From positions 9,983,875 through 10,047,874 of the forward strand of contig OZ316891.1 in the NCBI GenBank assembly GCA_973895155.1: a stretch of 64,000 nt of DNA. The letters run 5' to 3'. The position numbers were made by a program, and so were the translations under genes. The notes under the pieces are model-generated. The model saw only the letters and a program-made list of their open reading frames with translations. It had not been told where the DNA came from and ran no database searches. This document shows, piece by piece, positions 24,651-51,399 of this stretch; the stretch's first letter is position 1; each line of letters begins with the position of its first letter. The DNA comes from Marsupella aquatica (taxonomy: Eukaryota; Plantae; Marchantiophyta).

Positions 24651-24662
24651 TGGTATCAGAGC
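24651..24662 (+). promoter_or_regulatory. Primer binding site complementary to initiator tRNA-Met
   Basis: TGGTATCAGAGC begins 2 nt after the 5' LTR. Confidence 0.92.
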
Positions 24663-28800: not shown

Positions 28801-29852
28801 GATTTGTGCAAAGCGTGTACGATCCATGTGTTTACATCAGGCGTGTGAACAACACAGATTTTAAGCTTGTCATCCTTGTACTTTATGTGGATGACATGCT
28901 CATTGCAGCACAGGATAGGGGCGAAGTTGATAAGCTTAAGGCCCAACTCAGTTCTGAGTTTAAGATGAAGGATTTGGGCACAGCCAAGAGGATCCTAGGC
29001 ATGGAGATTGTCAGGGATGTTAACAAAGCCAAACTTTGGCTGACGTAGAAAAGATATGCAGAGAAGGTACTCTCAAAATTTAACATGGCAGATGCTAAGG
29101 CTGTGAGTGTTCCTTTGGCAAGGCATTTCAATATTTCTGCAGCATTTTGTCCATCGGATGCGACAGAAAAAGGTTTGATGCCCAAAGTTCCTTATGAAAG
29201 TGCTGTGGGTAGTTTAATGTATCTCATGGTATGCACCCGACCAGACATAGCTTATGCCGTTAGCAAGGTAAGCAGATATATGGCAAATCCAGGAAAAGTT
29301 CATTGGGAAGCAGTGAAATGGATTTTGCGCTACATCAGAGGTTCCACTAAGAAGGGTTTATTGTTTGATGCAAGTTCAAACAATATGAAAGTGCTTCAAG
29401 GTTATGTGGATGCAGACTACGCAGGTGATCTGGATAAGAGAAGATCGACAACTGGATATGTATTTACACTTGCTGGTGGATGCATTAGTTGGAAGTCTAC
29501 TCTCCAAAAGTGTGTTGCAAAGTCTACTATGGATGCCGAGTATGTAGCGGCAGTAGAAGCAGCATCAGAGACCATTTGGTTGAAAAAGCTTGTCACGGAG
29601 ATGGGCTTATCACAAGATTGTGTCTATCTTCATTGTGACAGTCAAAGTGCAATTTACACTGCCAAGAATCAGGTGATGGATGGTAGGGTAAAGCACATTG
29701 ATGTCCGCTATCATTTCATCCGACAGACATTATCGGATGATGAGTTTGAGCTTGTCAAGATTGATGGAAAGCTTAATCCAGCGGATGCTTTTACCAAAGT
29801 ATTAGACTCCAATAGTTTTTCAAGGCATTGTAATTATTTACAAATATTGTAA
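25821..29852 (+). pseudogene. Copia gag-pol polyprotein, one frame with two premature stops (27705-27707, 29046-29048)
   Basis: CWKCDKVGHMKKDC zinc knuckle, WILDSACSYHM protease, WHARLGH / LRSDNGGEY / QNGVAER integrase, FKARLVAKGF / QMDVVTAFL / LYVDDML RT, and YVDADYAGD / KHIDVRYHFIR RNase H. ORFs 25821, 27948 and 29085 share one frame. Confidence 0.95.
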
Positions 29853-30046
29853 ATATAGAGTTAACCAAGAAAATGTCTCTATATGAGTACTCCATCCGAT
29901 GGCTTATCGGCTACGGCTTAGTTCTAGTTAACCCTTGCATTAGGGGGAGGGTCTTTGGGCCCTACTGTCTTGAACTTCCCGCGGAGGAACTTGTAAGGAA
30001 AAGACAATGTTATGAACCCTCCCAAGACGTGAGTCAAGGGGGAGTT

Positions 30047-30369
30047 TGTAGAGGTTAACTCAGTCTTGGGTTGAACCATGGTTAGTATGTTAAGTGGGGT
30101 TAGAGTAAACCCTAGTTGAAGAGTTGGTCCTTATCTCTTCAACTTCTATGTGGTGTGAGAACACACAAGAGAGTTCTCAAGAGAGAACACAGTGATATAG
30201 CAAGAGATGAGAGCTTGAAGAGATGAGAGCTATGGTGATGCTTGAGTACACACATAACCGTTAATAAAGCTTTGTATTCCCGTGGACGTAGCCAACTTTG
30301 AGGCGAACCACGTAACTATTGAGCACGTGTATGTTTGGAGTGTTCTTCCTGATCTGATTTCTCCCCACA
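30047..30369 (+). repeat. 3' LTR
   Basis: Direct repeat of 24326-24648, preceded by a polypurine tract at ~30036-30044. Confidence 0.97.
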
Positions 30370-30374
30370 GAAAA

Positions 30375-30870
30375 AAGATGTAGTGTCGACCAAGAGGTCA
30401 TGGAGAGAAAAGATGTTGTGTCGGCCAAGAGGTCGTTGAGAAAAAAGAAGTCGTTGAGAAAAAAAGATGGCCAAGAGGTCGTTAAGAGAAAAGAAGTCAT
30501 TGAGGAAAAAATTTGTCATGTCGGTCAAGAGGTCGTTGAGAAAAAAGATGTCATGTCGGCCAAGATGTTGTCAAGAAAACAATTGTCATGTCGGCCAAGA
30601 TGTCGTTGAGAAAAAATATGTCGTGTCAGCAAAGACATCATTGAGGGAAAAGATGTCATGTCAGCCAAGACATCGTTGAGGAAAAATACCCGTGCATTGC
30701 ACAAAGATGTCCTTGAAGTCATTTTGCTAAAGATGTCATTATGTGAAAGATGTTGATAAGAAAAATGTGTCATTTTGCCAAAGATATCATGAAGTAAAAG
30801 ATGTTATAAAGAAAAAAAAGTGTCGTTTCATCCAAGTTGTCATTATGTGAAAGATGTTATGAAGTAAAAA
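30375..30870. repeat. Continuation of the Helitron minisatellite (right part), progressively degenerate
   Basis: Same GTCGGCCAAGA(G/T)GTCGTTGAGAAAAA unit. Confidence 0.85.
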
Positions 30871-31609
30871 GTAAAGGAGAGAAGGAGCAAGTCTTTTTCT
30901 TTGTTTGTTTTTTACCCAAAATGCCCTTGCATTTGAATGGCGACCACTCTATACATTGGCGCAATGTTATATTATCGGTTTAAGGTTTAAGGTTTTAGGG
31001 TTTAGCAAAGATGACCATTTTATCGCTATCCTTTCAATCCCCGTGCGTTGCATAAAAGATGTTGTTTGGTTAAAGATGTTGTTGAGAAATAGCTCATGGT
31101 GCAAAAGATATCATTGAATAAAAAATTGCACAAAACTTTTTGTTGAATGAAAGATATCATTGTGCAAAATACTGGCCACGGCAGCCACAAAAGTTCCCTT
31201 TTTCTTTTTTCTCCTTGCACAAAAAAATTCTTTGAATAAAAGACGTCATTGCACAAACCACTGGCTATGACAACCACAAAAGTATAACAAAATGAGAGGT
31301 GTTTTTCCCCCCTTTAAACTTTTTTCCTCTTATGTTCCTTGTAAACCTTAACCTCCCCCTTTTCCCCATTTCACCATCACTCCACTCGCTCGCCGCCCCC
31401 TCCCTCCCCACCTGTGCGCGACTGGAGCCCTTCGAGGGGCTGCCCTACATTGCAAGTGTGCCCCTCGCCAGACAACTTGCCATCAACGTCCGTGTCATGC
31501 GTTTCACTATGTCTTTGGGCCTTATTACTGTTGTTTTTTGGCATTGAAAATGATAGTGCAAATGACTCTAAAAATCACCACAAATATTGCACTAGAAGAA
31601 ATCGAGCCA

Positions 31610-31830
31610 TTCTGAGACCCAGCCTTACATGACTTGTGTGAGACCTTTGAAAATAAGTGACTCCAAGGTTTAGGGTGTCATCTTTGTTACATCTTCTTGA
31701 CTCACTTTTGGTGAAGTTCTGGGAAGTCATGTATTTAACTATTGGGAAAGTTGCTTCTGTAACTGAGTTAAGGCAAGTATATTGAAGTTATATAAGTGAC
31801 CATGACTTACATGATTTCCTTGCCCAATAC
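31610..31830. repeat. Left subterminal repeats of the CACTA element
   Basis: Clustered TGACT/AGTCA/GTGAC motifs in both orientations. Confidence 0.6.
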
Positions 31831-32544
31831 ATATGATTTTGGATCCATCATATTAATCACATTATGTCATGCAATTATATATAGTTACCTCCCTTTGCTT
31901 TAACCATCACTGAGTTGCTCTTTATTGTTCCCCTGTAAGAAAGTATACATGACATTTTTACCCTAATTGAAGTTTAGGTAAGTAGGGCAAATTTGTGATT
32001 CTAGCTAGACAAGAACCAACCAAATTTAAGTTAACATTCATGTACACGGCCGCAACTGAGTTCAAAAAGGTGTGAAAATTTGTGCCATGCCCCCAAAAAT
32101 AATGATGCACCCTAAACCCTAATACTCTACATACATAGTTACCTTAAAAAAGTCACCACAACCAATTAGTGGTACTTGTCACATACTGCTCACACACATA
32201 TTAAAACTCACTTCATCCCCTAACTCATTTTAAAAATTTGCTCTGCATATATACCCCATAATTAGCCAATATCAAATGGAACCCCCTTCATATGGGAATA
32301 TTGAAGGGCCCAATTTAGGACCTCTTTTTCCTTAAGTGCACAATGCAATGCCGTTGCATCAATTTCTCTATCGGAAGCCCTCTTCCAATGAACCATGTTG
32401 CGCAATTGCAAGTTGATACAACTGGCAATAGCTTTTGCCCTAAACTTTTGACTGCCAAAAGCTTTTGTGGAGGGACTTGGAGAAAGAGAGAGTGCGCCCG
32501 CAAAGTGAGAGTCTTGTTGTTTCATGAGCGGGAAAGTTTTCACA

Positions 32545-34421
32545 CACTAGTAGAAACCGGGGCAATTTATATGTCAAGGCTAGGGGGTGGCTGGGTTTTC
32601 ACTAAAGGGGGTTTAGGGGGGGTTTGATGTCAAGGGTCGGGGGTTGCATGTTAAGGGGATGGGGGTTTAGGGACCATTGGATCGTCAGCATCCATCCCCC
32701 CCGGTCCATTCTTCATCCATTTAACCCTCTTTTGCCAATGACTCCAAATGTCCAATGGGTTTTCAGAGGGTTTATGCTTGAGGAGGGTGAGTTTAAGGGT
32801 AGGTGTTGTTTTTTGCCATCTGGGTGACTTAGGATATTTATCTAACCCAATGACTATACCCAAAATACCCAACTAAAAGCCCCCCCCCCAAAAAAAAAAT
32901 GCATGCACCCTTGGTCTTAGTTACCGTTTAATCCTAACTGTGAACTTACGTCTAAATGTGTTAGGTGCTTGCAGAATGCCTATGAACGAGTCCTTCCAGT
33001 CGACTCAATGTTTAGGGTAAACGGATTTTGTAAAGGAAAATTGCACAAAGTGTCGACGGCTACCACCAGGGTTTTCCTTCACGTTTCTGCAAGGGAATCC
33101 AAGGCCAAACACTTTGCGCCCGATAATGCACTTTTCCTCAGTTGCTCTCGACTCTTGCACCTGATTGCACTCAGTCAATACATTTAGCGCTTTTGGAGGT
33201 GGGATTTCATGTCATTGCGTAGGGCTTGGAGCTTCGACCTTTGCTATATGACCCATTGTCGACTGCAATCTCACTATAGGGTTTAGGTGGGCCCTAAATC
33301 TTACATTCGTCTTTCCTGTGGTGACAACGCGGGTGCTAAGGTGTATAGGAGCAAGGTTGTCGGGAGGTTTATCGCGGATGACTGGCGATTGGTGAGGCCT
33401 ATTTGCATTCATCTCCACTATCATTGGGTACCCGAGATACAACGATCGACCTTCTATACAGAGGCGAGGAAGTGACGAGAACCTACAACTCTTTGCGGGA
33501 ATGCGTGGTCTTCTGCTTACCTGATTGCCCTCATGCTTGACTGTAAATACATTAGTAAAGTTTTGCTTTGGCTCAACTTTGGTCTTTTTTGGCCTTGCGT
33601 GACTGCGCTCACTTCTCTCGGTTTCCAGTGTGCAGTTGGCTAAAGACCTGGATGTCATGCTGTGAGCGCAAGCTGCTAGTAGTTGTCCATAGCTTGGGGA
33701 AAGCGGTGGGGACTGAGGCCACAAAGGAGTTTGACCTGCGCTTTTTTTTCTTTGCAGCAAGAGCGAGAGTGAGACGAGTTGCAAATTGAGTTTCATTGAG
33801 CTACTGCCCTGGGCTTGGCGGAGGTCCTACACTCTTGTGTCGCTCACTTGTTCAGCTGCGGTGGGAGCGGGCTTTTGGTAGTAACCTGTTCAGTTGCAGT
33901 GGGAGCTGACAACTTTGGTGGCTGTGGTGTTGAGCTTCTGAGGAGGGCAAGCAACTGCGTGATGTGCCCTTGAGTGAATGTCTCTTGGAGGAGCTGCGAA
34001 GTGGTGAAAGGGGAAGGAGGTGAGCTCGGGCCTGGAAGCAATGTGCTTCTCCAACATTTTTGCACAATGCAATGCTGCTCAATCGTTTATCCTTCCTCTA
34101 AAGTTGAGTGTGACGCATCGACCTTTGACGGGAGTATCTGCATTACAGTTTGCTACATACGGCTGCTCTCTATATGGCAATCGCCAATAGCTAGCGCAAT
34201 GGAGGGTTCGACGTCAACTTTGAGTCATTGATCAGTGCACACTACATCGCTCTCCCTTTGCTAAACCCTTTCTTTTGGCTTGGTTCTTGGTGCCTTTGGC
34301 ATAGGAGCGACGTTATTGCTAATCAACTCCCGAATCAACTTTGGAGGTGCGGGTTAGAAGGGGTTGGAGAGAGGAGGTCCAAACCAAGAATGCCCTTCAC
34401 CGTCAACGGTTTCTACTAGTC
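32545..34421. mobile_element. Possible nested non-autonomous CACTA remnant
   Basis: CACTAGTAGAAACCG at 32545, with a perfect 14-bp inverted copy (CGGTTTCTACTAGT) at 34407-34420. The terminal base and TSD do not match. Confidence 0.5.
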
Positions 34422-36782
34422 CCGGCCATGCAGCTGAAAGTGCGCTTCTTTCAGGTGTCGTAGCATTCTGCCAGCCGGGTGCTTGGACTGTAGAGAAGAG
34501 CAACCACAGTCATTCAGTTCTTCTCCTAGCTGAGCTGCGCATTGTCAACCATCGAGCGCTGCTGCGCGCTAGCTGTGAACCCCAAGAGGAGTTGCGACAA
34601 GGAGGAGATGCAACCAAGAGGAGATGCGACGAAGAGGAGATGCGACCAAGAGAAGCTGCTGCATCCCACATTGAGTTGGACATTGAGGTAGGGATGTGAG
34701 CTACGCACTTTCAACCATCAAGCAACCACCAAGCTCGGCAGCGCTCTGGGATTTGTTGGCCACAACAGACAAAGCGGAAGACAAAGGTGAGTGTTCATGC
34801 ACCGTTAGAGTAACCGCAAGTACTCTATTACATGCCTCATTGTTCTCTATTACATGCCTTGTTCTCCCGCCCACTGTTTCCTGCGATTTTCTTTCTTCCA
34901 TAAGAGAATGGTGATTTCTTCTTCTATCAAACAAAACCCCACCCAACCACCACACAAGAACGTGGGGTGCGCGCTTCTTAATCCTCCTCAAACTGGCCCA
35001 TTGTTCATTGAAACCCCACATATTACCCACCGGCACCAAGGGTCCAGTCCCAACCCGTCTTCCGCTCCCCACCATCTTCACTCTCTCGCGCATCTATCTC
35101 CTGAACGGCGTCGCTCTCCCTTAGACGCAGAATGCTCCGCTGTGATATTGCCTCCAACTTTTCTAGTGCAGTCTAGGCAATTAGATTGCTTTTGCGAAAA
35201 CTGCCCTTCTTAAAAGTGAGCAATACTAATAAGCCCCGGGGGTGGAGCGTTTGTTACGATGGCCGTGGACCTACCGTGGGCTATGGTAGAACACTCTATT
35301 GTCTATGATGATTATGAATCTGCTTGAACTGCGAGTGGATGTGCTTTAAGGCAAACTTGTCGGAGAAATTAGAATGGGGGGACGGAGCTGTCAGTGCTTA
35401 GGTTGTGGCATTTTTGAGATTGTCAAGAGTAATCTGTGATCTCATTTCTAAATGGTTTGAGCTCCTCTGATGTGCATAGGAATCGGGCTGAGGAAAGCTT
35501 TTGGGAGCTATCATCGGAACTAGCTTTCGATCTATTTCTGCTACTTTTGAATTGGTACTTGGGAAGGCTTTGTATCGTTAAGCACTACAAGATTCACAAG
35601 CCAGACCTGCTTGCTAGTATGAGGGGCTTTGAAGGAATGTGTGGCCAGGGCTGATTAAGTATGGATTAATTTTGCATTGCCTGAGATACTGAAATTGCCA
35701 CCCGCTTTGTTTCAATGCCTTTGATATTAATTGTTAATATCTCAAGAGGGTCGTCAACTAAGCTGAAAGGAGTCAAAGCTAACTACAAGCTAGCAAATAC
35801 AGAGAATGCTCCCAAGTCGAGTCAGGAGGAAGTTACTAAAACTAGACCTTCACAACTCTCGAAACTGGAAAGTGAAATTCAGCGTGAGACACGTAGCTGA
35901 AGGCCACAAGGATAACTATATGGCCACGCTGTCCCCCATTCAAGTCCAAAGTCCTCTTCAGATTGTCTGAACTCCTATTGAATGTATTGAATAATTATTT
36001 CATCACAGAAATTTTCAGAACAAACACGGAAGCACCAGGGGGCTGAGGATTGGATATTGAGGCTGAAGACATTGAGGTCATAAACTAGGTGTGGTTCGGG
36101 TGACAATGTTAGCAACTGATGCTTCTTCAGGGGAACTTCCCATGTGCAGTTTATCCACACATGATTGACTTTGGTTCTTGCTGTTTTTCTTTTGGTGTAC
36201 TCTTGAGTTTGGTGTCACTCTATCCTTTCCTGTAGCCTCGAAATAGGAACACACCTGCTTAGTGGTCCCCAATCGCCCAATGATTTATAATGACTGTGTC
36301 TAGGTGATGTATGCATTGCGTGTTCATTCCAGAAGAATGAATATGTACACTTTGCACAAACCTGGACAGATTTTGAATGTTATTTATCTGAGTTTCTGTT
36401 TGTGAGCTCTGACTTGGAGCCTTAACATTTGTGTTTCTGTGGGGCTGAGCAGAGTTTGTTCCGTCTAGAAGCTGCTGTACTGAAGTGATCAGCCTCCGGC
36501 TTGGAGGTGAATCTTCAATTTTTTGTGGATCCGAGTGACTTCTGTCCAGCTGAGTTTTGCTTTGTCGGGACGATTGTGTTTGGCTAAGATGCTAGATTGT
36601 GGCTTGTCTTCTTGCTTCCAGCTTGTGTATTTTCAATTAATAGAAGTTGGGAACGAAGTGATAATTGAATTTCCTTATATTAAGCATCTTCACCTAGAAA
36701 CTCAATACATAAACTCCAGGATTCCCTCGGGACATAAAATGAGCCAAATTGTCTCAAAATTGGGAACTTGCACCCGCACTAC

Positions 36783-37125
36783 TCAAACAATTGTGTTGGG
36801 CTTGGTGGCCTTGTAAGTCTTCTTTAGCTTTCGCAATGGAGGTTGAATCTTGCAGTACGTCAAGGGGAACTTGATCTTTGAATCATGGAACTGCTTGGTA
36901 CTTTCTCGCTTGCACAGAGAGACAGGGACTGCCGTAGTCTTCATGATCTGGATGCCAGGGAACCGAACTCTATGACAAGAAGCCATCTCATCATACATCT
37001 GCTCTGCAGCTCCGTTTCTTGTGGTATCACAATATTCCTTGTACATGTTGTGATAACCTGTACGACTCTGATACGTGGACCCAGATACCGAAGTTCTTAA
37101 TTGTGGTGGGCTTCTTTTCGAAGAT
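36783..37125 (-). pseudogene. RPL18a: Captured terminal exon of 60S ribosomal protein L18a (eL20)
   Basis: After acceptor CCAG|: [15 protein letters not shown], a 1-nt frameshift, then [57 protein letters not shown]. Confidence 0.9.
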
Positions 37126-38133
37126 CTGGTAGACACATTATTCAGCATTTGCTAACTTCGAAACTAGAAGGGTAACACATTAAACAACAGAGAAACTCAC
37201 AACATCCTCCTTTGGTCCTTCAGAGTCTGTACTTTGATTCTGAAGTTTGACTGAGTTTTTGTTTACTAAAAGAATGTGACTGTGTAAGAGTTCCGTTTGG
37301 CAGTGGATTGGTTGAAGCACTTCATGCTAGTGTGTTGTCCACAGCTCTTCAACCAGCTTTCGTCTTCCTTGTCTTTCACCACTTACGATGACATCAATTC
37401 AGCTAAGACCATAGAAGGTTCCAAAGCATCTAACTTGTAAAATCGCATTCTGTTACATCAAGGACTAAGGTGTTGGGTGCCAAAGGAGACAGCACAACAA
37501 ACACGCTGAAAAGACTTCAGGACTGGGTTCAACAAGGTAGTGAAGGTGCTTAGAGCCATAGTAAGTATGCATTCTGTATCTTTCTCTGTTGATGTGAGCT
37601 TGTGCATAATGGGAGTTGTAGTTGGCAAGAGTTCCAAATATGAATAGATCCAGAAGTATGTGATCATGTACTTGCTCTATAAAGTTCTGAAGATATAAGC
37701 ATTTTCTGTTAGACCAGGCAACTTGGGAGTTGGTAAGTGTCACCTGCATCTGAGGGGCTACACCGGGGCATCAGTGGAGGTTCACTTGCACAACACGACA
37801 ACCAGTGAATTTTCTCTCTGCTGCAACCTGCAAGGTGAGACTTTCGGTCTTTCTGGATGAAAAAACAGGAGTTTAATATGATTGATATACATGTCCGTCG
37901 AGAATATGGGTTTATCACCAAGCTCTTTGTCTTAGGAAACTCATAAACTCATAATCAAATATGTACTATGCACGTTTCATGCTATGTGTATACTATGACC
38001 TGTAGTTGGAACCAAGACAATGAGTGGGAACTGATTAGTTTAGGTGGTTGCTGTTGGCGAGGCAAGTCGACCTCCTGCTCACCTTGCTCATCAAAGGACG
38101 TGAACAGAGGACATCACAACGAAAGCAACACTT

Positions 38134-38583
38134 ATGGTGAGGACCCGCAACGCTGAACATGTGCGACTTGCACGCAAGGCAGAGATGTTGCGCCTTGAGT
38201 ATGTTAGACTTGGGATCCTTCCAGCCCAGTCTGCATGGTACTTTGAGTACCCTGTTGTTTCCAGGAACAACTACAGCCGGCCTCTACCTGCTTCAGTACC
38301 CTTCCCGACATCCTTGGTATTTGTGTCTCTTGTACATGACCCGCCACAAATTAGGTGCCAAGGGTGTGTACACAGTTGCCAATATGACTGTCCTGCCTGT
38401 AGGGCTTCTGGCCCAGAATTGGATGACCGTTCTCTTGGATGCCGATTTTTGCATAGAGCACAATGTATCATCTGGAACCACTCGCCATCCTGCAGTGTGC
38501 CTGGTGATGTCACTTGTCCTGCCCTCCCAGACCCCACCACCGGTGACTTTGGTGTCTACACATGTTTGGATCACATGCTCTAG
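38134..38583 (+). CDS. Cys/His-rich hypothetical protein, 149 aa (CACTA cargo ORF-A)
   Basis: ATG-initiated intact ORF with a basic N-terminus and CxxCxHxCxxxCxxC..C..H..C..H..C..C..C..H. No family recognised. Confidence 0.5.
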   Translation: MVRTRNAEHVRLARKAEMLRLEYVRLGILPAQSAWYFEYPVVSRNNYSRPLPASVPFPTSLVFVSLVHDPPQIRCQGCVHSCQYDCPACRASGPELDDRSLGCRFLHRAQCIIWNHSPSCSVPGDVTCPALPDPTTGDFGVYTCLDHML

Positions 38584-39198
38584 AGGACCACTTGTCACAC
38601 CGCATGCACAGACCAGATACCATTGACCTATAGCTTAACACTGTGACTTCAACACAGAGGATATTTACTTAAAATTTTGATGTATGAACAATTTTGGGTC
38701 CAGGGTTTAGGGTCAACAGTACATAACTTATATCCTATTATGCCTGCACTAAGCAAAATATCCTAATTTAAGAGGCTAGCAAACTCGCATAAAAGTCTCT
38801 ATTGAAAGACTGCTTTCATGACTGCTTTAACCTGGTGAACATTGCAACGTTGAATGAATTAATGGGCCATGTGATAATATGCAAAATGATTTATGCCTCA
38901 CTTATTTGTCTCAACCACTATCATAACCTATTTAGGATGTATAAATTTCAACCCTTATGACACTGCTTCATACCAATCCTCTTCGAAGAATGCCTGTTTT
39001 ACATGTCATGACTATTGTATGTGATTCAAATGCATGAAATGTTGTTGCAGATCTCCTTTGGTGAATCATAGCCACAATTAAAATTGAGGTGTTGGTGGAG
39101 AAATTGTATTAGGGGATCAGTTTTGTGTGTGGGCTCAACATACCAAAAGTATGTGTGCTCTGCATCCTTGTGTGGCCATTCCAATTCATTGCAGTAGC

Positions 39199-39342
39199 AA
39201 ATGCCTTTGTACCTTAAATGCTAAATATATTTTACTTTATGTGCAGTCTGCTAAATTGTAGAGTCTATCTAAATGCCTTTGTACCTTAAATGCTAAATAT
39301 ATTTTACTTTCTGTGCAGTCTGCTAAATTGTAGAGTCTATCT
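39199..39342. repeat. 72-bp tandem duplication containing a splice-acceptor-like motif, directly before the PHD ORF
   Basis: 39199-39270 and 39271-39342 differ at one base; each contains TTTTACTTT.TGTGCAG. Confidence 0.9.
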
Positions 39343-39353
39343 CATGCGCAGGC

Positions 39354-40034
39354 ATGGCACGGCCTAAAATTCAAGCCAAAAAGCGTGTGACAGAGGTGAG
39401 AAACACAGGTGTACTTGGGGCAGATGCTACTAACTTCTCTGCAAGTCAGATTTTCCAGAAGGCAGCTCATTGTTGTGCCATTTGTGACGATGGTGGGGGC
39501 CTGGTCATTTGTGAGGGCCCTTGCATGAGGCATTTCCACCTCAACCCGGAGTCTGACCTTGCTGCAGAAAACAACTGTCCAGGGGTGGGCCTCCCGTCAA
39601 CACACCAAGGAGACTGGATGTGCACTGATTGTTTGGAGAAGCAGGCTAAGTGTGCACAGTGTGGGAAGTTGGGGTCCTATGAGGGCTCTGTTGATGCTGC
39701 AGCAAATGTTAGGAAATGTCCAGACCGTTTTTGTGTGAGATTTTTCTGTTTTGAGTGTTTGCCTGCTCATGCCACAGCTTGCCCACTTCATAGGTGCAAG
39801 GCATGTGGTGAGCATGATGATGACTACTGGACTGACATAGTCCACTGTGCTAGGTGTCCCACTATGTGGCACTATCATTGCCTGAAAGATCATCAAGCAG
39901 AGGGTTATGCTTGTGACAGAGAAATCTATGATCACTCTGCACATGGTGTTGATCGATGGATATTTTATTGTCATCGCCATGCCATTGATCCTACCTCGCG
40001 CACTCCTGTGAGAGATCACATATCTTGGCTGTGA
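39354..40034 (+). CDS. Stand-alone EDM2/NSD-type composite PHD-finger protein, 226 aa (CACTA cargo ORF-B)
   Basis: CAICDDGGGLVICEGPCMRHFH..C..WMCTDC..KCAQCGKLGS..C..C.RFFC..C..CPLHRCKAC..CARCPTMWHYHCL..IFYCHRHAID...TPVRDHI follows the EDM2 PHD pattern as recalled, including the terminal YC..H.ID...TPVRDH motif. Confidence 0.88.
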   Translation: MARPKIQAKKRVTEVRNTGVLGADATNFSASQIFQKAAHCCAICDDGGGLVICEGPCMRHFHLNPESDLAAENNCPGVGLPSTHQGDWMCTDCLEKQAKCAQCGKLGSYEGSVDAAANVRKCPDRFCVRFFCFECLPAHATACPLHRCKACGEHDDDYWTDIVHCARCPTMWHYHCLKDHQAEGYACDREIYDHSAHGVDRWIFYCHRHAIDPTSRTPVRDHISWL

Positions 40035-40626
40035 AGCTGAACATTGTACATGCACAGTGCACCTGATGTGGATGTACTATTTTTTGAGATTGCAGAGATT
40101 CCAATTTTGAAAAGGAGTTGGGTAGGCGAGTTTATATAGGCAGCACTTATCTTGTGCTCTGGCGTCAGTGGCTGGGTACATGCCTATACAAACTTATCCT
40201 TACAAGCCTTCTTGGAAGTATTTAGGCTAAGTGGTCATTTTCATAAACACTTTCATTAGACTGCTAAATTAAAACAGGACTTCTAAGTTGTAAGCGTATA
40301 AATTATCAGGCATGCAATTAATCAAATTGCCCTATAAGTTTGTCATTGAATGTATCCTCCTTTACAACAAAATATGTATGTGCCATGACAAGTTGGTTGC
40401 ACTTCATTTCACCACGGATATGGATTTTGTAGTATATATTCAAACAATGTCCTGCATCCGTGCAGGTGCCTAGTACGTATTGTTCACATATCCCTTGTAC
40501 CTATCAAAATCGGACCTGAGCACCAGTGGGCCAGATCAACTCAAAAAGCAGGAATTTTGTTGTCCTTGTATTGTCAGGTGAACCCATTCTTCCAAAATTC
40601 ACTGTCATCACGTAGAGTGTGTGTAC

Positions 40627-41499
40627 ATGGAGCCTGGTAAACGTAGAAAGTGTGACCACCCAGCAGTGTTTACAGGGGTCAGAGCGATTTTGGTCCATGG
40701 CCAGCATGGGTTGACCAAAGTGCATTGGCCAACTGTACAGAAACGATTCTCTGAGCTCCATGGCACTGTAGTTCAGGACATCACTCCAGAGACTACACAT
40801 GTTGTTGCAGGGACATGGCTATCAGTGATAAAGAAGTGGTCATGGTCCTACATGAATTCTGCAATTACTAAGCAAGGCCTAAAAGTAGTTGAGGCCTCTT
40901 GGATCACAGATTCCATAGCACATAAGATTGTACAGGATACTGAGCAATATGAGTTGTGGGAGGATGAAGAAGCTACTGCATCAGCTTGGGCTGAACAAGA
41001 AGTCTGGGAAGCAAAGGCACGGCTTGCTGATCTCCAATATGGACCTGTACTCAACAAAGGACAGAGCTCTACAAGGCTGAAGTGTATGTTGGCTGAGGAG
41101 ACGAAGCAACCAACCCCCATTCTGAAAGGGCTGAGCATGGTATTTGTGGAGGCGGGAATTGGAGAGGTTAAGTGCAAAGTGTACAAGTCCACAGTGCTTG
41201 ACCTAGGTGGGACAGTGGAGGAGAATATAACAGAGGACACCACTCATGTCATTACTAAGTCATATCCCAAAGCCTGCCGCAAGTTTGGGAAGGGAGACAT
41301 TCGCTTTTATGTCATGTCCCATAATGTGTTTGTGGTTTCATATGCTTGGCTTGTGGAATCAGTAGCAGCTGGGAAGCGTCAAAACCCAATGGACTATGAT
41401 CTTTTTGAGGCCTGGCCACGGAAGGGTCAGGATCCTTACAGAGAGGACTATGAGACAACAAGTGAGGAATGGGTCATTAGCGATTCTGAATCAGAGTGA
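40627..41499 (+). CDS. Tandem BRCT-domain protein, 290 aa (CACTA cargo ORF-C), Pol lambda/Pol X-like BRCTs
   Basis: Two repeats: FTGVRA..HGTVVQDITPETTHVVA..VVEASWITDSI..YEL and LKGLSMVFVEAGIG..LGGTVEENITEDTTHVI..VVSYAWLVESVAAGKRQNPMDYDL. NLS-like KRRK at the N-terminus and an acidic tail. Confidence 0.88.
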   Translation: MEPGKRRKCDHPAVFTGVRAILVHGQHGLTKVHWPTVQKRFSELHGTVVQDITPETTHVVAGTWLSVIKKWSWSYMNSAITKQGLKVVEASWITDSIAHKIVQDTEQYELWEDEEATASAWAEQEVWEAKARLADLQYGPVLNKGQSSTRLKCMLAEETKQPTPILKGLSMVFVEAGIGEVKCKVYKSTVLDLGGTVEENITEDTTHVITKSYPKACRKFGKGDIRFYVMSHNVFVVSYAWLVESVAAGKRQNPMDYDLFEAWPRKGQDPYREDYETTSEEWVISDSESE

Positions 41500-41904
41500 G
41501 GAGTAGTAGCATCAGTTTGGACACAAGTTTTTTTGTATAAATCAGATCATTGAAATAAATGTGATCTTTGAACTAATGTACCTTGTTATGGTTGGTGGCA
41601 GTTGGGCTTATTTTACTGTTGGCGGATTGTTGTTTCCTGCTGCCTGGGGGTGTCACTGTAAACGTACATGCAGAGGCGGTACATTTGAGGACAGCGGAGG
41701 AGGTGGTGACACCCTCCAACATTTAGGAATTTTGTGTCATTCACTTGACAATAGGTACACTACTTGCGAACCTGTTTTTTTCTTTTGGGGTGGTTTAGGG
41801 TTTGTGAGAATTTAGTACACGTTATGTTAACTCTTTTGGCAGATACAGTCAGGGATATATGGAACACAAATACCACCATTAGGCATCCTTGTTCACTGCT
41901 GTCC

Positions 41905-44900
41905 ATGACTGCAGAGCTCCCAGTCTGTTACAATGCACCCTGGTCACCACCCTCCCAGACCCAGCCCAGGGCACAGGCACTGCCTTTGCATCATCCCACA
42001 AGGATATCACGCCATGATAATAAGCTTTGGCAGCGTGAAAGGTTACGAACCAGACTTTCAGGAGCCAGTAGGATGAGATGTCCTTGTGCAATCTGCCAAG
42101 GATCCTGTACCAGGGGTCTGAATGAGGTTTGGCGGCATATCGCGGTTCATGGAAGAGATCCACGACATCGAGTTTGGAATGATCCTGCAGAGGAAGATTC
42201 TTCCGACGAGGAGTGGAGGTTAGAATTTGATGCTGCCAATGCTGCAAGACGGGCAAGTGAGGTTCTGCCTGGTGCATTTGAAAATGTTGTAGCTGGTCTC
42301 TGTGGGTTGTCAGCTCTCCAACGGGATGGTGCTCAGGCAGCACCACGTGACGAAAGAATTCATGTGGAAGAGATGGTGAGAGACATCTTCCAAGACTTGG
42401 ATGCATTTCATGATGGGCTGGACAATGAAGAGGATACGGCTGCAGATGCAAGTGTGCCCCCTGTCGAAGAGCCTCTTGATGAGTTTGAGATAGGGCAGGA
42501 AACCCCTGGGCATGATGGGATGTTTGGCTCTCCCCTGCAAATACAGGAAGGCAGGAAGTCTTTGTACCCCGGTAGCAAATGTTCTAAACTGGGATTTGTC
42601 ATCATGTTCCTGAACATTTGCGGCAACCACAATGTCCCCAACGTTTTGGTTTCTGAGTTGTTGGCATTCTTGCGAACAACTGTGCTACCAGATGGTAATA
42701 TTTTGCCCAAGAACATGTATGAGGCAAAAAGATGCATATCTAATCTTGGATTGAACTATGATTCGATCCATGCCTGTCCTGATGGGCATGTTCTTTTCAG
42801 AAAGGAGTATAAAGAATCGTTGACATGCCCTAAGTGTGGGAAGCACAGGTATCAGAACTCAGGAAAGTCTATGGTTCCCGCCAAGGTACTTCGTCATTTT
42901 CCACTCATTCCCAGACTTCAGCGGATGTTCAAAAGCCGTGCCATCTCGGAGATGATGACTTGGGCAACTAACAAGAAAAGTGATGATGGGCTACAACGAC
43001 ATGCTGCAGATTCAAGGCAATGGAAACTCATAGATGAGATGTATCCCGAATTTGCTGCTGAGCCGAGGAATGTCAGACTTGGGCTGTCATTGGATGGGGT
43101 AAACCCATTTGGAGACAAGAACAACAAATTTTCGTGCTGGCCTGTAACTATTTTGAATTATAACCTTCCTCCTTGGATGACTACAAAGCAATTTTTTGTT
43201 CTGATGGTCCTACTGATACCAGGGCCAGACAGTGCTGTATCTGCCAACATAGATGTGTTTCTGGCTCCCCTAGTGGAGGAATTGAGAAAGCTTTGGGAGG
43301 AAGGAGTTCTCACATATGATGTCCTACAGAGGCTTGGGAGGTTAAACCCATTCATCCTTAGAGCCATTGTCATTCTGACTATAGCTGACTACCCAGCCCA
43401 TGGGATGATATCAGGCCAAAAAAAAAAAGGATATTGTGCTTGTACTATCTGTGGGCGCAATGTCACCAGTGAGTACTCCAGAGCCCTGCAGAAAGTGATA
43501 TACATGGGCCATCGTCGTTTTCTGAAGGCAGATCACCCTTACAGAGAAAGATAGGCACTGATTGCACACTTTGGCAATGAGATTGAGCAACGTGGACCCC
43601 CGGCACGAGTGACCAAAGAGGAGATCAGGCAGTGGGGAGCACTGAGGGATGACTATATCAAACGAGGGGGCAGGGAAGATGGAGTGAGTGATCCAATAAA
43701 GCGATATGGTGTAAAAAGACTGAGCATATTGGACTTGGAGCTCAAGTACTGGAGGGTAAGCCTCTTGGAGTTGATGCTAATTGGGATACATGTTTTGGTT
43801 CAGAGCATGTGCATTCATTTCGAAGAGAGAGACTAAACTTGAGGCATTTCTTGACGCTTTTGCATTGCAACGATGCAGGAGTTTGAGCCAAGCAAACATA
43901 ACATTGATGTTATGCACATTGAAAAGAATATTTGTGAGTCTACTCAGATTCTTGTGTGGAGAGAAAGACACTGGTTCAGTGAGATTGGATCTTGAACAGA
44001 GGGGAATGAAACCCCATCTTTGGTTGAGGCCACATGCCCACAGAGCTGAGGTGCTCTTGAAGTACCAAGCGCCCTATGTTCTGACAAACACAGAGTGGGA
44101 ACTATTTGTGCAGAGGTTGAGTTCTTTGAAGGTTCCTTCAAACTATGGCAGTGCTTTCAAGAAGCATATCATGACTAGAAAGCTTGGTAGTATGAAAAGC
44201 CATGACTACCATATGTTGATGCAATAGGTGTTGCCTTTATGCCTGAGGGGCCTGTTGCAGAAGCCTGTTCGTACTATGATCATGCGACTCAGTGATGTGT
44301 TTCGTCGTATTTGTGTGAAGGTTTGGGATGAAACACACTTCCCACAACTGACAGAAGATGTCGCTCAGGTGCTGTGTGACCTGGAGATTTATTTTCCTCC
44401 CGCATTTTTTGATGTCATGACCCACCTACTTGTCCATGTTGTGGAAGAGCTACACCAATTTGGGCCTGTGAATGCTCGTTGGTTGTACCCTTTGGAACGG
44501 TACATGAAGCTACTCAAAGGTCACGTGAGAACATATTACAAACCTGAAGCAAACATGGCTAAAGGTTACATCAAGGATGAGACTCTGGGATTTCTGACCG
44601 AATACATAGCACAATATGAGCATGTGAAGACCAAGGTGTGGAATTCTGATGAGGAGGAAGGGGTGATAGGTGAAGTACTGGAAGGGGCTGCAACCACAAA
44701 GAACCTGACCATATCTATGAGAGACTTGGCACATGACTTTGTATTGCACAACACTGTGGTGATGGAACCCTGGATACAGTGAGTGCATACATGTGCTATA
44801 ATCCAGTTCATGAGCTTAAATGTTGTGTTCGTGTGGTTTTCTCCTTCAGCCTGTTCATGTTTACCCAAGCTAATGCTGTGTGGTTGTTCGTTCAGGGAGT

Positions 44901-45661
44901 ATGAGTCATTGAAGGCGGCCCATCCCACTGCAGGAACAACTTTTCCAGGTTTCATGGAGTGGATCAGAGTGGCAATTAGAGAGCATCACGAGACCCACCC
45001 AGACATGGATGCAGATGTTTACCTACTGTCTAATGCCCCTAGCCTGAAAGTGAAGACTTACAAACGGATGAGAGCATATGGGAATCACTTCCGAGTGAAG
45101 GATGGTGACAGTGCCTACAGGGTGACGAATGACTGCGGGCTCATCACTGTATTTGAGCAACAGAGCCACAATCATGACAGGGCCTGGATGGAGATGGGAT
45201 ATGTGGGAGAATTAGTTGACATATGGGCTCTGGACTATGGGGCGGTGTCCAGTCCTGTGATTCTTATGAAAGGTTCATGGGTGCGGCAGGATTGGCTTGG
45301 TAACAGGGCTACCATGAAGAGAGACAACGACGGTTTCTTGCTGGCCAATTTCAGAGGGAAATTGCCCGAATGGTCTGAGCCATTTGTGTTTCCTAGTCAG
45401 GTGGAGCAAGCTTTCTTCCTGGATGTGGAAGACTCCCCAGGTTGGCATGTAGTGTGTCATAAACAGGCCAGGCAACGTCGGATGGAAGGATCAAACCTTG
45501 AGTTTTATTTACACTCTCATAGTGCCTTTGATCGTCGGCGTTCAGACCAAGTGCCTGTAGTTCATGATAGCGGGGACTTCATTCCTGTGACAAGGGTAGA
45601 TGCATTTGCTGAAGGAGGCGAATTCAGAGATGCAGATGCCAACAGTGTGCCTGTGCCATGA
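41905..45661 (+). pseudogene. CACTA transposase TnpD (Transpos_assoc + Transposase_21 + DUF4218 + DUF4216), disrupted
   Basis: RCPCAIC..RHIAVHG, IHACPDGHVLF, LRHFPLIPRLQRMF, RNVRLGLSLDGVNPF, YNLPPW, TIADYPA, DVMHIEKN, KSHDYH, RWLYPLERYM and EPFVFPSQVEQAFF. Premature TAG at 43552-43554 and 44225-44227, frameshift near 43940, introns at ~43756-43878 and ~44779-44895. Confidence 0.93.
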
Positions 45662-45817
45662 GTAATGTGAATTGTTTGCATGGACATTAGTGAGGGGAAG
45701 GATGTGTAATAAAGTAATTCTGAAGCAACACAGATGTATGGATGGATGCCTGGTGATTGTGGTTGCATTGTGTTATACGGGGTGACCATAGATGACATGT
45801 TTTTGTGGTCCAGTAGG

Positions 45818-48800
45818 ATGGAACAGAGTGACACAGAGATGTGTGAGTATGAAAGGAAAGCTATGGAACAACGAGCATACGTGAAAGCCAAAATCGCAGA
45901 ACTGGATCTGGAAAAGGATGTGGCTGAATTGTAAGGGAAGGATTCTCAACTACACCCCTCCGCTGAGTTTGTGTGACATGAATAGTTCAATGTGGCACTG
46001 AAATTGTGACTGTATTCTCATATTGGAATGTCGCAGAGCCACAGCATTTTCAAAGAAACAAAAGGAGTACGCAAGAAGGGTGACCAGCACTATCTCTGGG
46101 CCTGTGCGTCGGAGTGACAGGTTGAGCAAGAAGGTCGTACCTACAATGGTAGAATGTGGAGATGACATTGATGCTGCACAGGTGGGTGCAGACACTAGAC
46201 AAGAAGATGTAGATGATGAGTATTTTCCAGAGGAAATGGATGAGGATGGGGGTTATGAAGATAAATACATTGCAGAGCAGCCCCAAAAGAAACATGTAAG
46301 TAGTTTTCCCAACAAGGTTTTGAGTTAAAAACTCTTGTTTAGAGGTTTCATATGTTCAGTACTACACATATGTACCTTGCTTAGTTCCTGACATTGTAGT
46401 TGGTGATGTGATGCAGCGTCTTGCCAGTTCTGTTTTGCCTTCAAAGCCTGTGCATGCACCATACCAGCAGGGGGGCTGACCTCTGATCAAGGTTGGCGAG
46501 GTGGTAGTAGTGGTAGATCCCAGGCTGGTGCCCAATACTATGGCAGGGGGCAAGCTCTAGGTTATGCCCGTGGTAGAGGCAGAGCAGGTCCAAACCCACA
46601 ATCTCGTGGGTATGGACGTCCACCTCAACCATGGGGATGTGAGTATATATCTATATGCCAGTTCTTTGTGAAGGCATGGCACTCCTGAATTTCAGACTGC
46701 ATATCAATTTTTGACATTGTTTGGGATGTATTGGATTCAGACAACATGAAATTCTGTCCACCTGCCATTGCATGCAGATTCTGCCCAACCTGATTGGGCA
46801 AATGCTAGTAATGATCAGTTCCAATGTCCACAAGGACAGACATGGGTTGAACCAGGTTGGGAGGATGGTGGTGGGTCGTGGAATGAACAAGGTTGGGAAG
46901 GTGGTGAAGGTAATTGGCAGGGATATCAAAATTCAGTACCTACAAACGCTGGAAGAGGAGCAGGTAATGTCTGATCTTGTCAGCAATGGAAGAACTCATT
47001 ATATGTGGAGTCCATTCACGTGGGGGGGACTCTGCACATGTATAATGATAGAAAATGTATGTGTGCAGGTTGGACAGTCGAACCATCAACTCAAGTATTC
47101 ACTAATGCCCCTATGCAGATGCAGCACGGAAGGGGGACAGGTATGTCGGTGAATGTTCAATTGTTTTCCTACAGTTTGTACTTAGTTTTCAGTACATATG
47201 TTTGCACACACATACCTAGAAAGTGACATCATCCGGCCCCTGTACTAGGCTGGACAGGTGGTCCAGGGTCGCAACAATTTCAGAGTGCAGTCCCTGCATA
47301 GGCATCTACAGGCAGAGCTACAGGTATGTATGTTTGAAGAATTTTTCTTGAAGTGAAGCATTGAATGTTACCGTCATCCATTCTGCTATATGTAGTTCTC
47401 AAGCATGAATGGCATTGTATTTTCCCAGGTGGCTTCAGAACCCCAGGTAGGGTGAATGAAGGGGTGGCCAATACAACGCCCAGTACTACCGAGAGCAGTG
47501 CACGAGGGGAGGTGACAAAGAAAGGGAACGTAAAGTTGAATGAGAGACAATGGGTGGATGCTGAGTGTCCTCGCAAGAACCGATGGCATGCTGATTTGAA
47601 AGCTGAAGTATTGCGTTGGTTAGATGTGAGTGTTATTAATTTTAAAAAACAGCATCCAAAAGATTGGAAGACTGTATGTGAAAATGTTGCTGCCAAATGG
47701 AATTATGTGGGCAGTGATGATGGCGTGGACATAGGTTGCCTAGAGAGTACAGCAGGTAAAATTATCAAGCAAGAGAGGTGGAGAATGCATAAGGCTTGGA
47801 AGGAAGGTGGGGAGAAGCCAGATATGCCTCCACCAGCCAGTTGTGATGATAAAGTGTGGGCAAGGTTAGTAGCTTATTTTGTAACAGATGCTTCAAAAAA
47901 GAAGAGTTCACAGATGACCGAGGCTAGGTTGAGTGTTCAGAACCCTAATCTGACAGGAAGGACCGGCACTGCACCGACAGCTAAACGTTTGGTAAGAATG
48001 AATGGCCTAGCTATGTAATTTATGCTACACTATGTACTATTTTTTAGTGTAAACCCATACATGTAAACTTTCTTTTTTAGTGTACGTTCCCTGAATATTG
48101 ATCGATAACTTGTGTTTGCCATGCATGTGCAGAAAGCCCAATTGGGGCAAAGCCCTTCAAAAGAAGAGTTGAGGGCTGAAATTGTGAACACCCAGGCTCA
48201 AGAGGGTGCATCTGAATCCTCCAAGCATGTAAGTTATATGAGTTCTGATTGGTAATTGAATGACCTGCGTTGAATTTCAGGTGTACACTGTATATAACAT
48301 TGATTGTGCATATATTGCCCAACATTTCATATGGAGTGATTGAACCTATACCCCTGTGTCATGTAGGGAGGTGGATCTTCACTTACAGAGATAAGTGGTC
48401 GTTTGAAGGCTGTCGAAACATGTCTTCCAGAGATCAATGAACGTTTGAATTCATTGACTGACTTGTTCCATGTGAACTTCAAGACATTAATGGAAGCTGT
48501 TGTGTCGGTGAGAGATAAAATTGATTCCAATTCTGCAGGAGTTCCACCATCACCACTTGAGGTGGCAAAGTCGATGCACTCTTCTGGCATGCCAACGACA
48601 TGTAGGCTTGAAGGTAAGGCCTTTACAACTGTGTGGGATATGATTATTAAATGTATAGTTTGAATTGACATTGTTTGTTGAATGTGTTATTTTCAGTAAC
48701 ATATATTGTGGTTGTTGTGTCCATAGAGAATAAGACAGGTGCTACAGAGAAGAAGTATGAGAACTTGGCAAATACTCGCTGTAATTTAGAGGCAACAAAG

Positions 48801-49523
48801 TTGCAGTCTGTACAAGCAACTTGTTTGACAGAGGGCAGTCAACCATGTTTGGATGAGGATGACATTGGCAAGGGAGTGGATGATATCAATGTTGGGGCAA
48901 ATGAGGATATCAGCAAGCATGACAATGATACCATTGAGCCAGATTCATGCTATGTAGATCTTGACTCCATTGCAGAGATAAATGATTTGCAGAATGTATC
49001 ATTCTCAATGACAGGTGTGCCTCTTGTTGAGATAAATCCAACCAAAGAGTTAGTTGGTATGACACTCCCAGGTGATGAACCTGCTACTGTGACAGTCCTA
49101 ACAGAGGAACCTACTGAGCCTAGCTTCACTACTGTGAAGAGAGGAAGCATGCGCACACGAAGCAAGTCTGCTGGTGGGAGCAGAGCCACGTCAAAGGTTT
49201 CATACAAACCTCCAAGAACAGTGCTGGCAGAAAGATCTAAGGTGGAAGTGGGGAAAGCACCTAATGCTGAGGGACAAAGTGGCTTGTTAGCTGTTGATGA
49301 GAGTGGAACACGAGTAGGATTTGCCAGAGTGCAGGTTGGTTCCACAACGTTCCATGGCAAGAGGATTCCCCCAGGTTATTCAGTAGTGTTAGTCACATTA
49401 CTAGTGAAACCTAAAGCTGTCCTTCCCATTCCAAACACAAATGATGATCCTCCTCAAAAGACACTTGGAGATGCTGCAGGTTCTTTGGTATTATGGCCAA
49501 GCAAGTTCATAGAGGATCCATAA
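45818..49523 (+). CDS. Multi-exon TnpA-like (Ptta/En/Spm-type) second CACTA gene; exon structure only partly resolved
   Basis: Exon-like blocks with GT-AG ends. ERWRMHKAW..PPPASCDDKVWARLVAYF..KKKSSQMTEARLSV..TGRTG at 47430-47990. C-terminal FHGKRIPPGYSVVLV..LPIP..TLGDAAGSLVLWP, typical of the Tnp1/TnpA C-terminus. Confidence 0.75.
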
Positions 49524-50019
49524 CAATGTCATGCCATTATTTGTTTGTAGTGTGAGTCATGTTATGTAGATTTTAGATGTCAAGAAGCAGTACAAGAATC
49601 ATGTCCTCTTGGAGATTCATAGTATCATGCATGTGCTTTCAGTTATCTCATCCTACAGTCATCAATTATGAGTTCCTGTTTTGTCTAAATTACATTGATC
49701 ACATTGTAAACTATTCCATTGGAATTCAAATGATCTTCATTTTTTAGCAAGATTGTGATTGTGTTTAATTCTTATGAATGTTTTATGTAGGATCTGCTTA
49801 TATGATGCTTTGTTTCATGTGGATGTCATTCATGCTATGTTCATTTCTTGTATTCAATGTGTTATATTTCTAAAGTTAGAACATCAGGTTTCTATGTATT
49901 GTAATGTCGAGTGCTCTCTCTCCTTATGAACTGTCCCTCTGTGTTCATTAGTCATGGTTATAACTTGCATGTGAACCTTATTAGTTATAAACATGAGTAT
50001 ATAGAGTCCCAAATGGTTC

Positions 50020-50360
50020 TACTGTGTGACGCGGGCCAGGGTCTCCATTGGTCTCTCCTATGACACTAAATAGTCACACGCTAGTCGTTGTTGAATGCGG
50101 GTAAGTCATGTATGTGACTTACGATGTGACTCGCTGAAGTCATATTGCAGTCACGTCGAAACAAGGCTAGACTCCACAATAAAGTCACAGATCAGTCACA
50201 AATGGGTATCAAGCAAGTTGCAAAGCCCAATATCAATAGTGACTTCCATTTTTTGGTCTCAACTTTTGCAACTCCAAGGGTCACAGCGTGGGTCAAGTCA
50301 CGTTGAGTCACAATGAAGTCACATGAGCCAAAATGAGTCATATATTGCGGTCTCAGTTCA
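50020..50360. repeat. Right subterminal repeats of the CACTA element
   Basis: More than a dozen AGTCAC/GTGACT/GGTCAC motifs in both orientations. Confidence 0.75.
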
Positions 50361-51399
50361 CCTCGGATTCTTCTAGTGTTGGGAGAACAATTTTTTATTT
50401 ATCAAGTGACTAAAATATTATTAGCAATTAAACTCCTCTTATCACTATTATACAAAACTATGTTGCACATAATATTGAATATGTAGAATACTCTGAGTAT
50501 GTACAATACGGATCATGGAGGCCTGGAGGGAGTATCCTCCTTGATCCTCGTGCATTGATTATCGTGCATTAATTAAAGTCTTTCACTTTTTGGGGGTGTC
50601 TCGTGTGATTATTTGGCTTGTCTTGGACAATGGTGTAACTTTTTGTGTCACACTAAACTCAATCCACATTTTGATTTTATTACTTACCTTTGATCACATT
50701 TTTAAATTTTTATGCCCTTCAAATTTGAATGACGACCACTCTAAAAAGTGGCGCAACTGTGTATTATACTTTAGGATGACTAGTAAAGTACAAAGGTACT
50801 AAAGAGTTATGCACATACATTACAGATTTTCATTTGATTCTAGGTAATAAGAGTCAACTCAATTAAAACCATAAATTTTGTAAAGGAAACTACAGGGGAA
50901 CCTAGTACACCAGATGGGCACATTGTTTAAATTCATTTCTTTCACTCTCATGAGAAAAAAGAGAATTCACTAAGGAGTGATTGAAAAGAAAAGATTAAAC
51001 CTTTATGAGGGGAGCCAAATACATTCAAATAACTTCAAATTCACTAAAATTGAAAGGGGTACAAAAGTTAATTCAAAATCATATTAAATAATACAAATGA
51101 TTCACCTTGGTAAGGCACATTAAAATCAAGATACTTGACACAAAATATGAATAAGACAAAATCTGAAAGGTGGATCACCATTCACCATATATTAATTGAT
51201 TACCCTTTCAAGCCTAAACCGCTCTACTAATTAAAACTGGTATAATCCCATAATCCAACATATTATGCTCAAATTTATTTTTTTGCTCCCCAAAATTCTC
51301 TGTTTTGTCACCCAAAATTAATTAAATTCATGGGTCACCCCGTTGTTTCCTTGCATAATTAGGGGTATTTTAATTAATTATCTTTGTTGGAGTTAGCCC

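Follow-up and report, generated by a model that had tools for sequence, protein, structure and literature searches.

The ORF analyzed here lies in a window of 64,000 nt (the whole stretch of DNA under study) from Marsupella aquatica. It is a real, selected and transposon-borne ORF for an EDM2-like triple-PHD protein, which by its domain architecture is not EDM2. The features of the ORF and of the CACTA element around it are collected in Table 1.

Table 1. Features of the PHD ORF and of the surrounding CACTA element (positions within the window)
Feature	Positions	Strand	Remarks
Left target-site duplication TTG	31587..31589		empty-site joint 31586->50379 in runs X1, X2 and X3
Left CACTA terminal inverted repeat	31590..31619	+	30 nt, 77% complementary
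Captured ribosomal protein L18a fragment	36783..37148	-	Pfam PF01775, E 3e-17; lower-depth 5' part; Pack-CACTA style
Cys/His-rich ORF, 149 aa	38134..38583	+	AG acceptor 38004-38005; high-depth core
72-bp tandem duplication upstream of the PHD ORF	39199..39342	+	joints skip one unit; depth dip
CAG splice-acceptor-like site	39349..39351	+	2 nt before the ATG; consensus match only
Stand-alone EDM2-like triple-PHD ORF	39354..40034	+	226 aa; no coding intron; ends TPVRDHISWL-stop
H3-tail-like motif, residues 2-10	39357..39383	+	A, R, K, A, K
PHD1 (C41-C93)	39474..39632	+	C4HC3; H-x12-C spacing atypical; Pfam and ligand alignment
PHD2 (C100-H146)	39651..39791	+	fifth ligand Cys, not His; spacer 7 aa versus mostly 25-27
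PHD3 (C148-H209)	39795..39980	+	EDM2-type end motif TP.RDHI comes next
Tandem-BRCT ORF, 290 aa	40627..41499	+	stand-alone
TnpD-like transposase	41824..45661	+	Transpos_assoc, Transposase_21, DUF4218, DUF4216
TnpA-like exons	47365..49523	+	weak Transposase_24 match, E 1.5e-4
Right CACTA terminal inverted repeat	50349..50378	-	
Right target-site duplication TTG	50379..50381		

Architecture and identity of the PHD ORF

Three PHD fingers of the EDM2/NSD type, with 24 zinc-ligand (Cys/His) positions, make up nearly the whole ORF. All 24 positions align with those of the atypical PHD repeats of the EDM2 family, and with one exception, a His-to-Cys change, the conserved ligands are present. The Pfam families PHD-1st_NSD, PHD_NSD and PHDvar_NSD were matched at residues 39–93, 96–140 and 148–180, respectively, all three under the curated cut-offs. 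The strongest evidence for identity came from a pairwise BLASTP comparison with a named EDM2 of Cryptomeria (P0158), to which residues 41–223, including the TP.R.HI motif, are 33% identical (pairwise E value 5e-30). At a cut-off of E <= 1e-3, 1.84 billion representatives yielded 249 proteins in a phmmer search with the ORF. Within the best 150 of these 249, the top seven were short stand-alone relatives, and most of the others were longer and also carried this triple PHD; the matches checked by name were EDM2, EDM2-like or unnamed PHD proteins. NSD2 reached only 18.5 bits with the single ORF sequence, compared with 79.8 bits for the Cryptomeria EDM2 P0028 (the two values come from different libraries), and the family profile matched NSD2/3 with E values of about 1e-11 (7e-12 for NSD2). 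The EDM2-type identity that had been claimed in the original prediction was thus upheld, and the possibility that the best matches would be unrelated PHD proteins was refuted by the phmmer results.

Structural comparisons were less specific. PHD clusters like those of NSD came up in the ESM Atlas with the ORF as query, the best (0.92) from Streptophyta. AlphaFold gave a model of middling quality (pLDDT 73, pTM 0.65), with residues 1–26 and 40–46 below 50, and fold searches with it mainly returned PHD, PZP and NSD PHD-C5HCH matches at low scores, e.g., a weak match to NSD PHD-C5HCH with a VIA Z of 3.8, an rmsd of 3.2 and 75 aligned residues. PHD1-3 of NSD2 and NSD3 resemble the ORF in their triple-PHD pattern and by weak structural matches, but the SET and PWWP domains of NSD proteins are missing, as the Pfam, PDB and profile searches gave PHD matches only, and the EDM2-type end motif of the ORF is left unmatched. 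A solved structure of the EDM2 composite PHD was not found in the PDB searches.

With EDM2/ELP1 of Arabidopsis and other land plants the ORF shares the atypical composite PHD, the spacing of the ligands and TP.R.HI as the end motif. It differs in length (226 aa versus about 1,200–1,400 aa) and in the absence of the RFD, of acidic domains and of the ELP methyltransferase-like domain, as well as in its H3-like leader, the missing acidic flank, the intronless structure and its location inside a transposon. The domain list and the AAE role of EDM2 are taken from PMC7529245. With its stop right behind the PHD cluster, the ORF has neither the C-terminal ELP methyltransferase-like domain nor the acidic domains and the proline-rich end; the DNMT1-RFD-like domain (PF12047), which is present in 9 of the 30 phmmer matches scanned, was not found in the ORF by Pfam.

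The ORF had been described as almost exactly the PHD cluster. This holds for its end, with the stop right after TPVRDHISWL, but not for its start, where a leader of 40 aa with nine conserved initial residues precedes the cluster. The claimed lack of coding introns was corroborated, because the ORF is colinear with its full-length relatives and thus no coding intron is needed. A donor-like GTGAGA site near the 3' end raised the question of an exon of a longer gene; this is unlikely, because the residues past the site and the stop are conserved. The same stop column is shared by the window ORF, P0001, P0002, P0004, P0005 and P0011.

The CACTA element and its predicted transcript

The ORF is enclosed by a CACTA element of 18.8 kb (31590 to 50378), with CACTA sequences at both termini (the criterion is that of 10.64898/2026.08.24.746577). 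In three of four public sequencing runs, contigs join 31586 directly to 50379 and represent the empty site, so the insertion is polymorphic. The terminal inverted repeats, the TTG duplication, TnpD and TnpA and the empty-site contigs together confirm that the ORF is part of a transposon, as had been proposed.

The order on the plus strand is Cys-rich ORF, PHD ORF, tandem-BRCT ORF, TnpD and TnpA-like exons. TnpD was identified by Pfam matches (E values of 2e-66 for Transposase_21 and 2e-28 for DUF4218), and in the present copy it is broken by in-frame stops and a frameshift. The Cys/His-rich ORF gave no real Pfam match and no ESM Atlas match, so that no family was found; it is possibly an accessory gene. 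For the tandem-BRCT ORF no named homologue was found, and two full-length relatives with 60% and 54% identity stem from Logan contigs. Its nearest solved relatives are Rtt107, BRCA1, ligase 4 and microcephalin, all of them weak matches (E values of 1e-3 to 0.1).

The splice-acceptor-like site just before the start codon of the PHD ORF makes a spliced 5' UTR likely. As an AG acceptor-like site lies upstream of each ORF of the element, alternative splicing from a shared leader is suggested. The tandem duplication between the Cys-rich and PHD ORFs is likely to be specific to the present copy.

In the core of the element (about 36500–50378) the contigs are deeper and more varied than over the 5' part. 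Depth does not equal copy number, but the core evidently represents a multicopy family, and the PHD ORF lies in this core, outside the lower-depth cargo part. The observed/expected CpG ratio is 0.23–0.40 in the core versus 0.79 in a host gene, which fits a long-methylated family. The flanks of the ORF contain 14–17 stops per frame upstream and 7–9 downstream.

The region also holds several other repeats. The 5' part of the element contains, at 32545–34420, a second, nested pair of CACTA-like inverted ends, and public contigs break exactly at 32544. A matching 3-bp duplication was not seen at this pair, which is possibly a nested non-autonomous element. Outside the element, a 45-nt direct repeat (82%) is found on both sides (30931–30975 and 50723–50767), and the element may therefore have inserted into older repeated DNA. 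At 24147–30870, ORFs of a Copia-type LTR retrotransposon (25821–29852; family judged by eye from the translation) are fragmented, with a 35-nt tandem array on either side (24147–24325 and 30369–30686; the two arrays are similar). Two overlapping ORFs on the minus strand at 6004–7802 look by eye like a remnant of a non-LTR retroelement, and Pfam gave no match for the longer of them. A transporter gene in the flank shows 94% identity to one from Calypogeia fissa and 80–85% identity to those of Marchantia and Riccia, which makes a leafy liverwort the likely host.

Relatives, origin and selection of the ORF

The short stand-alone relatives have lengths of 217–245 aa and identities of 37–82% to the PHD ORF; the eight that were checked for their source come from Logan or JGI contigs. 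In the trees, which were calculated with complete cores and left out truncated matches, they form one long-branch clade apart from all the EDM2-like proteins that were included, with a support of 1.0 (12 of 141 cores) and of 100/100 (11 of 51 chosen rows). None of the 141 cores in the tree from the all-length representative search placed a long protein inside this clade. The predicted stand-alone product was supported.

Three shared derived features set the clade apart. The fifth ligand of PHD2 is Cys in 12 of 12 clade members, versus His in 124 of 129 EDM2-like proteins. The spacer comprises 7 aa compared with mostly 25–27 aa in the EDM2-like proteins, a deletion of about 20 aa. An acidic residue is missing from the eight positions before PHD1 in 21 of 23 clade members but in none of the 129 others. 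The zinc ligands are otherwise conserved across the relatives, as the original prediction would have it: of the nine full-length relatives in the alignment, six retain Cys or His at all 24 positions, counting one His-to-Cys swap, while P0004, P0007 and P0011 have lost one or two ligands.

It had been assumed that the ORF retains the reading specificity of EDM2, whose PHD domains recognise H3K9 methylation (PMC4980392). This cannot be assumed, because the PHD2 ligand, the deletion of about 20 aa and the acidic flank all differ. In a canonical PHD finger the acid before the PHD binds H3K4, and with the loss of the acidic flank before PHD1 the specificity of EDM2 cannot be carried over to the ORF. 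Given the missing acidic residues, histone-tail binding could even have been lost.

The affinity to EDM2-type proteins was confirmed. In the best tree the clade is not nested among the EDM2 orthologues but lies outside canonical EDM2 and attaches, with weak support (81/89), beside liverwort paralogues without the methyltransferase-like domain, its nearest neighbours in the tree. In AU tests neither canonical EDM2 (p-AU 0.086) nor the moss paralogues (0.33) were rejected as sister group. The view that the host counterpart is always long did not survive, as short PHD-only or methyltransferase-less paralogues occur in Marchantia (Mp4g03050, P0046, 280 aa), rice (Os03g0266600, P0044 group) and wheat (259–339 aa, P0039 group), and thus the stand-alone form alone is not unique to the transposon. 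Like the ORF, these short or methyltransferase-less EDM2-like proteins, with Mp1g03210 and Calypogeia CAM6087769.1 among them, terminate with the PHD cluster or shortly behind it, but the short host paralogues retain the PHD2 His and the acidic flank, both of which are absent from the ORF. Mp4g03050 is 33% identical to the ORF and is annotated as a host gene, as are the other short paralogues. The short proteins of Marchantia, rice and wheat are possibly the donor lineage or domesticated forms. The best BLASTP identity of the ORF to the hosts compared was 33%. The ORF probably goes back to an ancient capture of an EDM2-like gene of a plant.

The transposon context was established for the window's own family only. 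Several clade members are truncated or frameshifted, and high-depth partial matches were found in run X6, which stems from another organism. The short contigs, the many broken members and the X6 matches are indirect hints that the distant relatives may be repeats as well. A metagenome scan for the DNA context of the relatives (alignment A4) left none of 112 matches confirmed; a single metagenome match to P0156 (19 residues, marine) was treated as spurious.

The variation among the copies is purifying, and we conclude from the variant counts that the ORF is selected. In four runs, 14 synonymous and 17 non-synonymous variants were found at 31 ORF sites, among 40 of 168 listed. The resulting pN/pS ratio was 0.32 (binomial P = 0.002), although the counts are small, come largely from few haplotypes, and the numbers of sites are uncorrected. 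Neither a change in a ligand codon nor a stop was present at the 31 sites. All 12 listed indels fell outside the ORF, despite the fact that it makes up 61% of the stretch (P about 0.001 when counted as 7 clusters), while low-depth contigs with gaps in the ORF do exist.

An H3-tail-like N-terminus and the possible role of the protein

After its start Met, the protein reads A-R-x-K-x-x-A-x-K, in which A, R, K, A and K are taken to correspond to positions 1, 2, 4, 7 and 9 of histone H3. The strict spacing was found in 8 of 20 clade leaders, versus a mean of 0.03 and a maximum of 2 in 20,000 shuffles; this test overstates independence, because the leaders share ancestry, and the motif was chosen post hoc, with the sequences already in view. 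(The 20 do not include P0011 and P0024, in which the leader is missing, or P0155, which is nearly identical to P0007.) The strict motif was absent from the 129 EDM2-like proteins, which together comprise 113,545 residues. R and K were used to register 15 leaders; positions 7 and 9, which played no part in the registration, were A and K in 10 of 15 cases each. In most of the distant members, conservation was higher in residues 2–10 than in residues 11–29 (e.g., 7/9 versus 2/19 and 6/9 versus 2/19), and the ratio of synonymous to non-synonymous variants was 4:1 in codons 2–11 versus 1:6 in codons 12–29.

The motif follows directly after the start Met in most members of one subgroup. It is not universal: the intact, full-length P0002, P0003 and P0006 have no strict motif, and the P0155/P0156 group has a looser form only. 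Among 304 other proteins (174,349 residues), 9 occurrences of a relaxed form were counted, Mp4g03050 of Marchantia being one of the carriers, with R.K..A.K upstream of its PHD cluster. A phmmer search of the PDB with residues 2–22 gave no match at E <= 10, and thus the likeness to H3 is a resemblance at the motif level and not a significant alignment. Complex prediction between the PHD cluster and the 30 N-terminal residues gave a score of 0.02 (no alignment was used), from which no conclusion is drawn. The H3-like motif, which had been missed in the original prediction, appears to be a new feature of this ORF family; a histone-mimic tail on a PHD protein is plausible but unproven, and the basic N-terminus may be a nuclear localisation signal or a DNA-binding tail only.

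We tentatively favor the explanation that the ORF is an intact, selected accessory gene of the CACTA element, whose product would counter silencing of the element with its triple PHD and its H3-like tail. The protein would be made separately from a spliced transcript, and the PHD cluster would dock at copies of the element, with nucleosomes or a chromatin partner as its target. Removal of the Met would leave a tail that may be read as H3 residues 1–9 by host K4/K9 readers or writers, and would thereby compete with or divert them. The triple PHD has no evident DNA-sequence specificity, and therefore a preference for its own element is unexplained.

VANC of VANDAL, TnpA of Spm and TET/JBP of fungal DNA transposons are anti-silencing or accessory proteins that are likewise encoded next to a transposase, retained by the element and aimed at chromatin. 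PHD or chromo domains are known in other groups of transposons. Anti-silencing proteins of plant transposons are exemplified by VANC (PMC10398659), which is sequence-specific and binds non-coding regions, whereas the ORF has a host-derived histone-reader fold and is likened to VANC by its proposed role. The short H3K4-like motif of influenza NS1 and the H3-like motif of SARS-CoV-2 ORF8 likewise occur in selfish elements (PMC13165374; on histone mimicry see also PMC11738798); the motif described here would differ from the viral mimics in that it is encoded by a transposon, is N-terminal, covers the spacing of K4 as well as that of K9 and belongs to the same protein as a reader. Further background is given in PMC3632883 and 10.1101/2024.09.22.614159.

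Several other explanations have to be weighed against an anti-silencing role. The PHD and BRCT proteins might instead tether the transpososome to a chromatin state or link excision to repair, with no role in silencing. Chromatin readers guide the integration of retroelements. The two ORFs are neighbours that immediately precede TnpD, conserved full-length relatives exist for each of them, and the nearest solved relatives of the BRCT protein, all weak, are DNA-damage proteins. As such an adaptor would leave the H3-like tail unexplained, we regard it as rather unlikely. Clearly unlikely in our judgement is a scaffold in which the fingers bind proteins of the element itself, the basic N-terminus serves for nuclear localisation and the likeness to H3 is due to chance. 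The loss of the acidic residues before PHD1 and the incomplete distribution of the motif, together with the occurrence of its relaxed form elsewhere, would agree with it. However, conservation extends to positions without charge (A/S at 1, A at 7), and a localisation signal would presumably need neither this nor the exact placement after the start Met that is seen in most of one subgroup.

The original prediction had also considered help for the element's own long transcript. The protein would then bind H3K9-methylated chromatin and recruit or displace ASI1/AIPP1, so that the transcript could escape premature polyadenylation; EDM2 with ASI1 and EDM3 suppresses proximal polyadenylation (PMC7529245 and PMC9292364). 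The ancestry is clearly EDM2-type, and the choice of the 3' end should matter in an element with four or more consecutive ORFs, each behind an AG acceptor. This mimicry of the EDM2 pathway is nevertheless improbable, considering the missing RFD, acidic and ELP domains, the identity of 33% to EDM2, the clade-wide changes in PHD2 and in the acidic flank of PHD1, and the position outside canonical EDM2 in the best tree, even if nesting there retains a p-AU of 0.086. The model of read-through at H3K9me2 and its AAE context, moreover, stems from Arabidopsis and rice, whereas the host here is likely a leafy liverwort. In Marchantia about half of the transposons carry H3K27me3, and H3K9me2 was outside the eight marks profiled (10.1101/827881). 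That the ORF is neutral Pack-CACTA cargo, a captured fragment without function, is very improbable. Gene capture of this type is well known (PMC13317346), a fragment of host L18a is present in the same element and several relatives are broken. But no close donor was found among the hosts compared, where BLASTP reached 33% at best, the ligands and the stop are conserved across 37–82% identity, and the ORF lies in the high-depth core while the L18a cargo lies in the lower-depth part. The pN/pS ratio, the lack of ligand and stop variants and the location of the indels outside the ORF likewise argue against neutrality.

If the H3-like tail does act as a decoy, this would represent transposon histone mimicry as an anti-silencing strategy, of which no earlier description was found in the literature searched. 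The known anti-silencing proteins of plant transposons act mostly via sequence-specific DNA binding, and a host-derived histone-reader fold kept under selection, possibly together with a histone mimic, would extend the conflict to the recognition of histone tails. The chromatin of transposons in liverworts differs from that in flowering plants. In this ORF the EDM2 composite PHD also occurs in a naturally minimal form, and because the protein is small, intronless and easily expressed, the idea is directly testable. In the literature searched (titles and the beginnings of abstracts, with subscription papers and Repbase mostly outside), no CACTA/EnSpm element with PHD or BRCT and no transposon histone mimic was found. 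Recent work on gene capture and on the products of transposons (including 10.64898/2026.08.24.746577 and PMC13317346) does not mention PHD, EDM2 or BRCT in the main text, and the supplements could list such ORFs.

A broader form of the anti-silencing reading, a two-part chromatin weapon of a liverwort CACTA element in which a remodelled EDM2-type reader and a decoy of H3 residues 1–9 would act together with the tandem-BRCT protein as a partner, is doubtful on present sequence evidence. Irrespective of this, the presence of a stand-alone tandem-BRCT gene in a transposon is worth a separate study.
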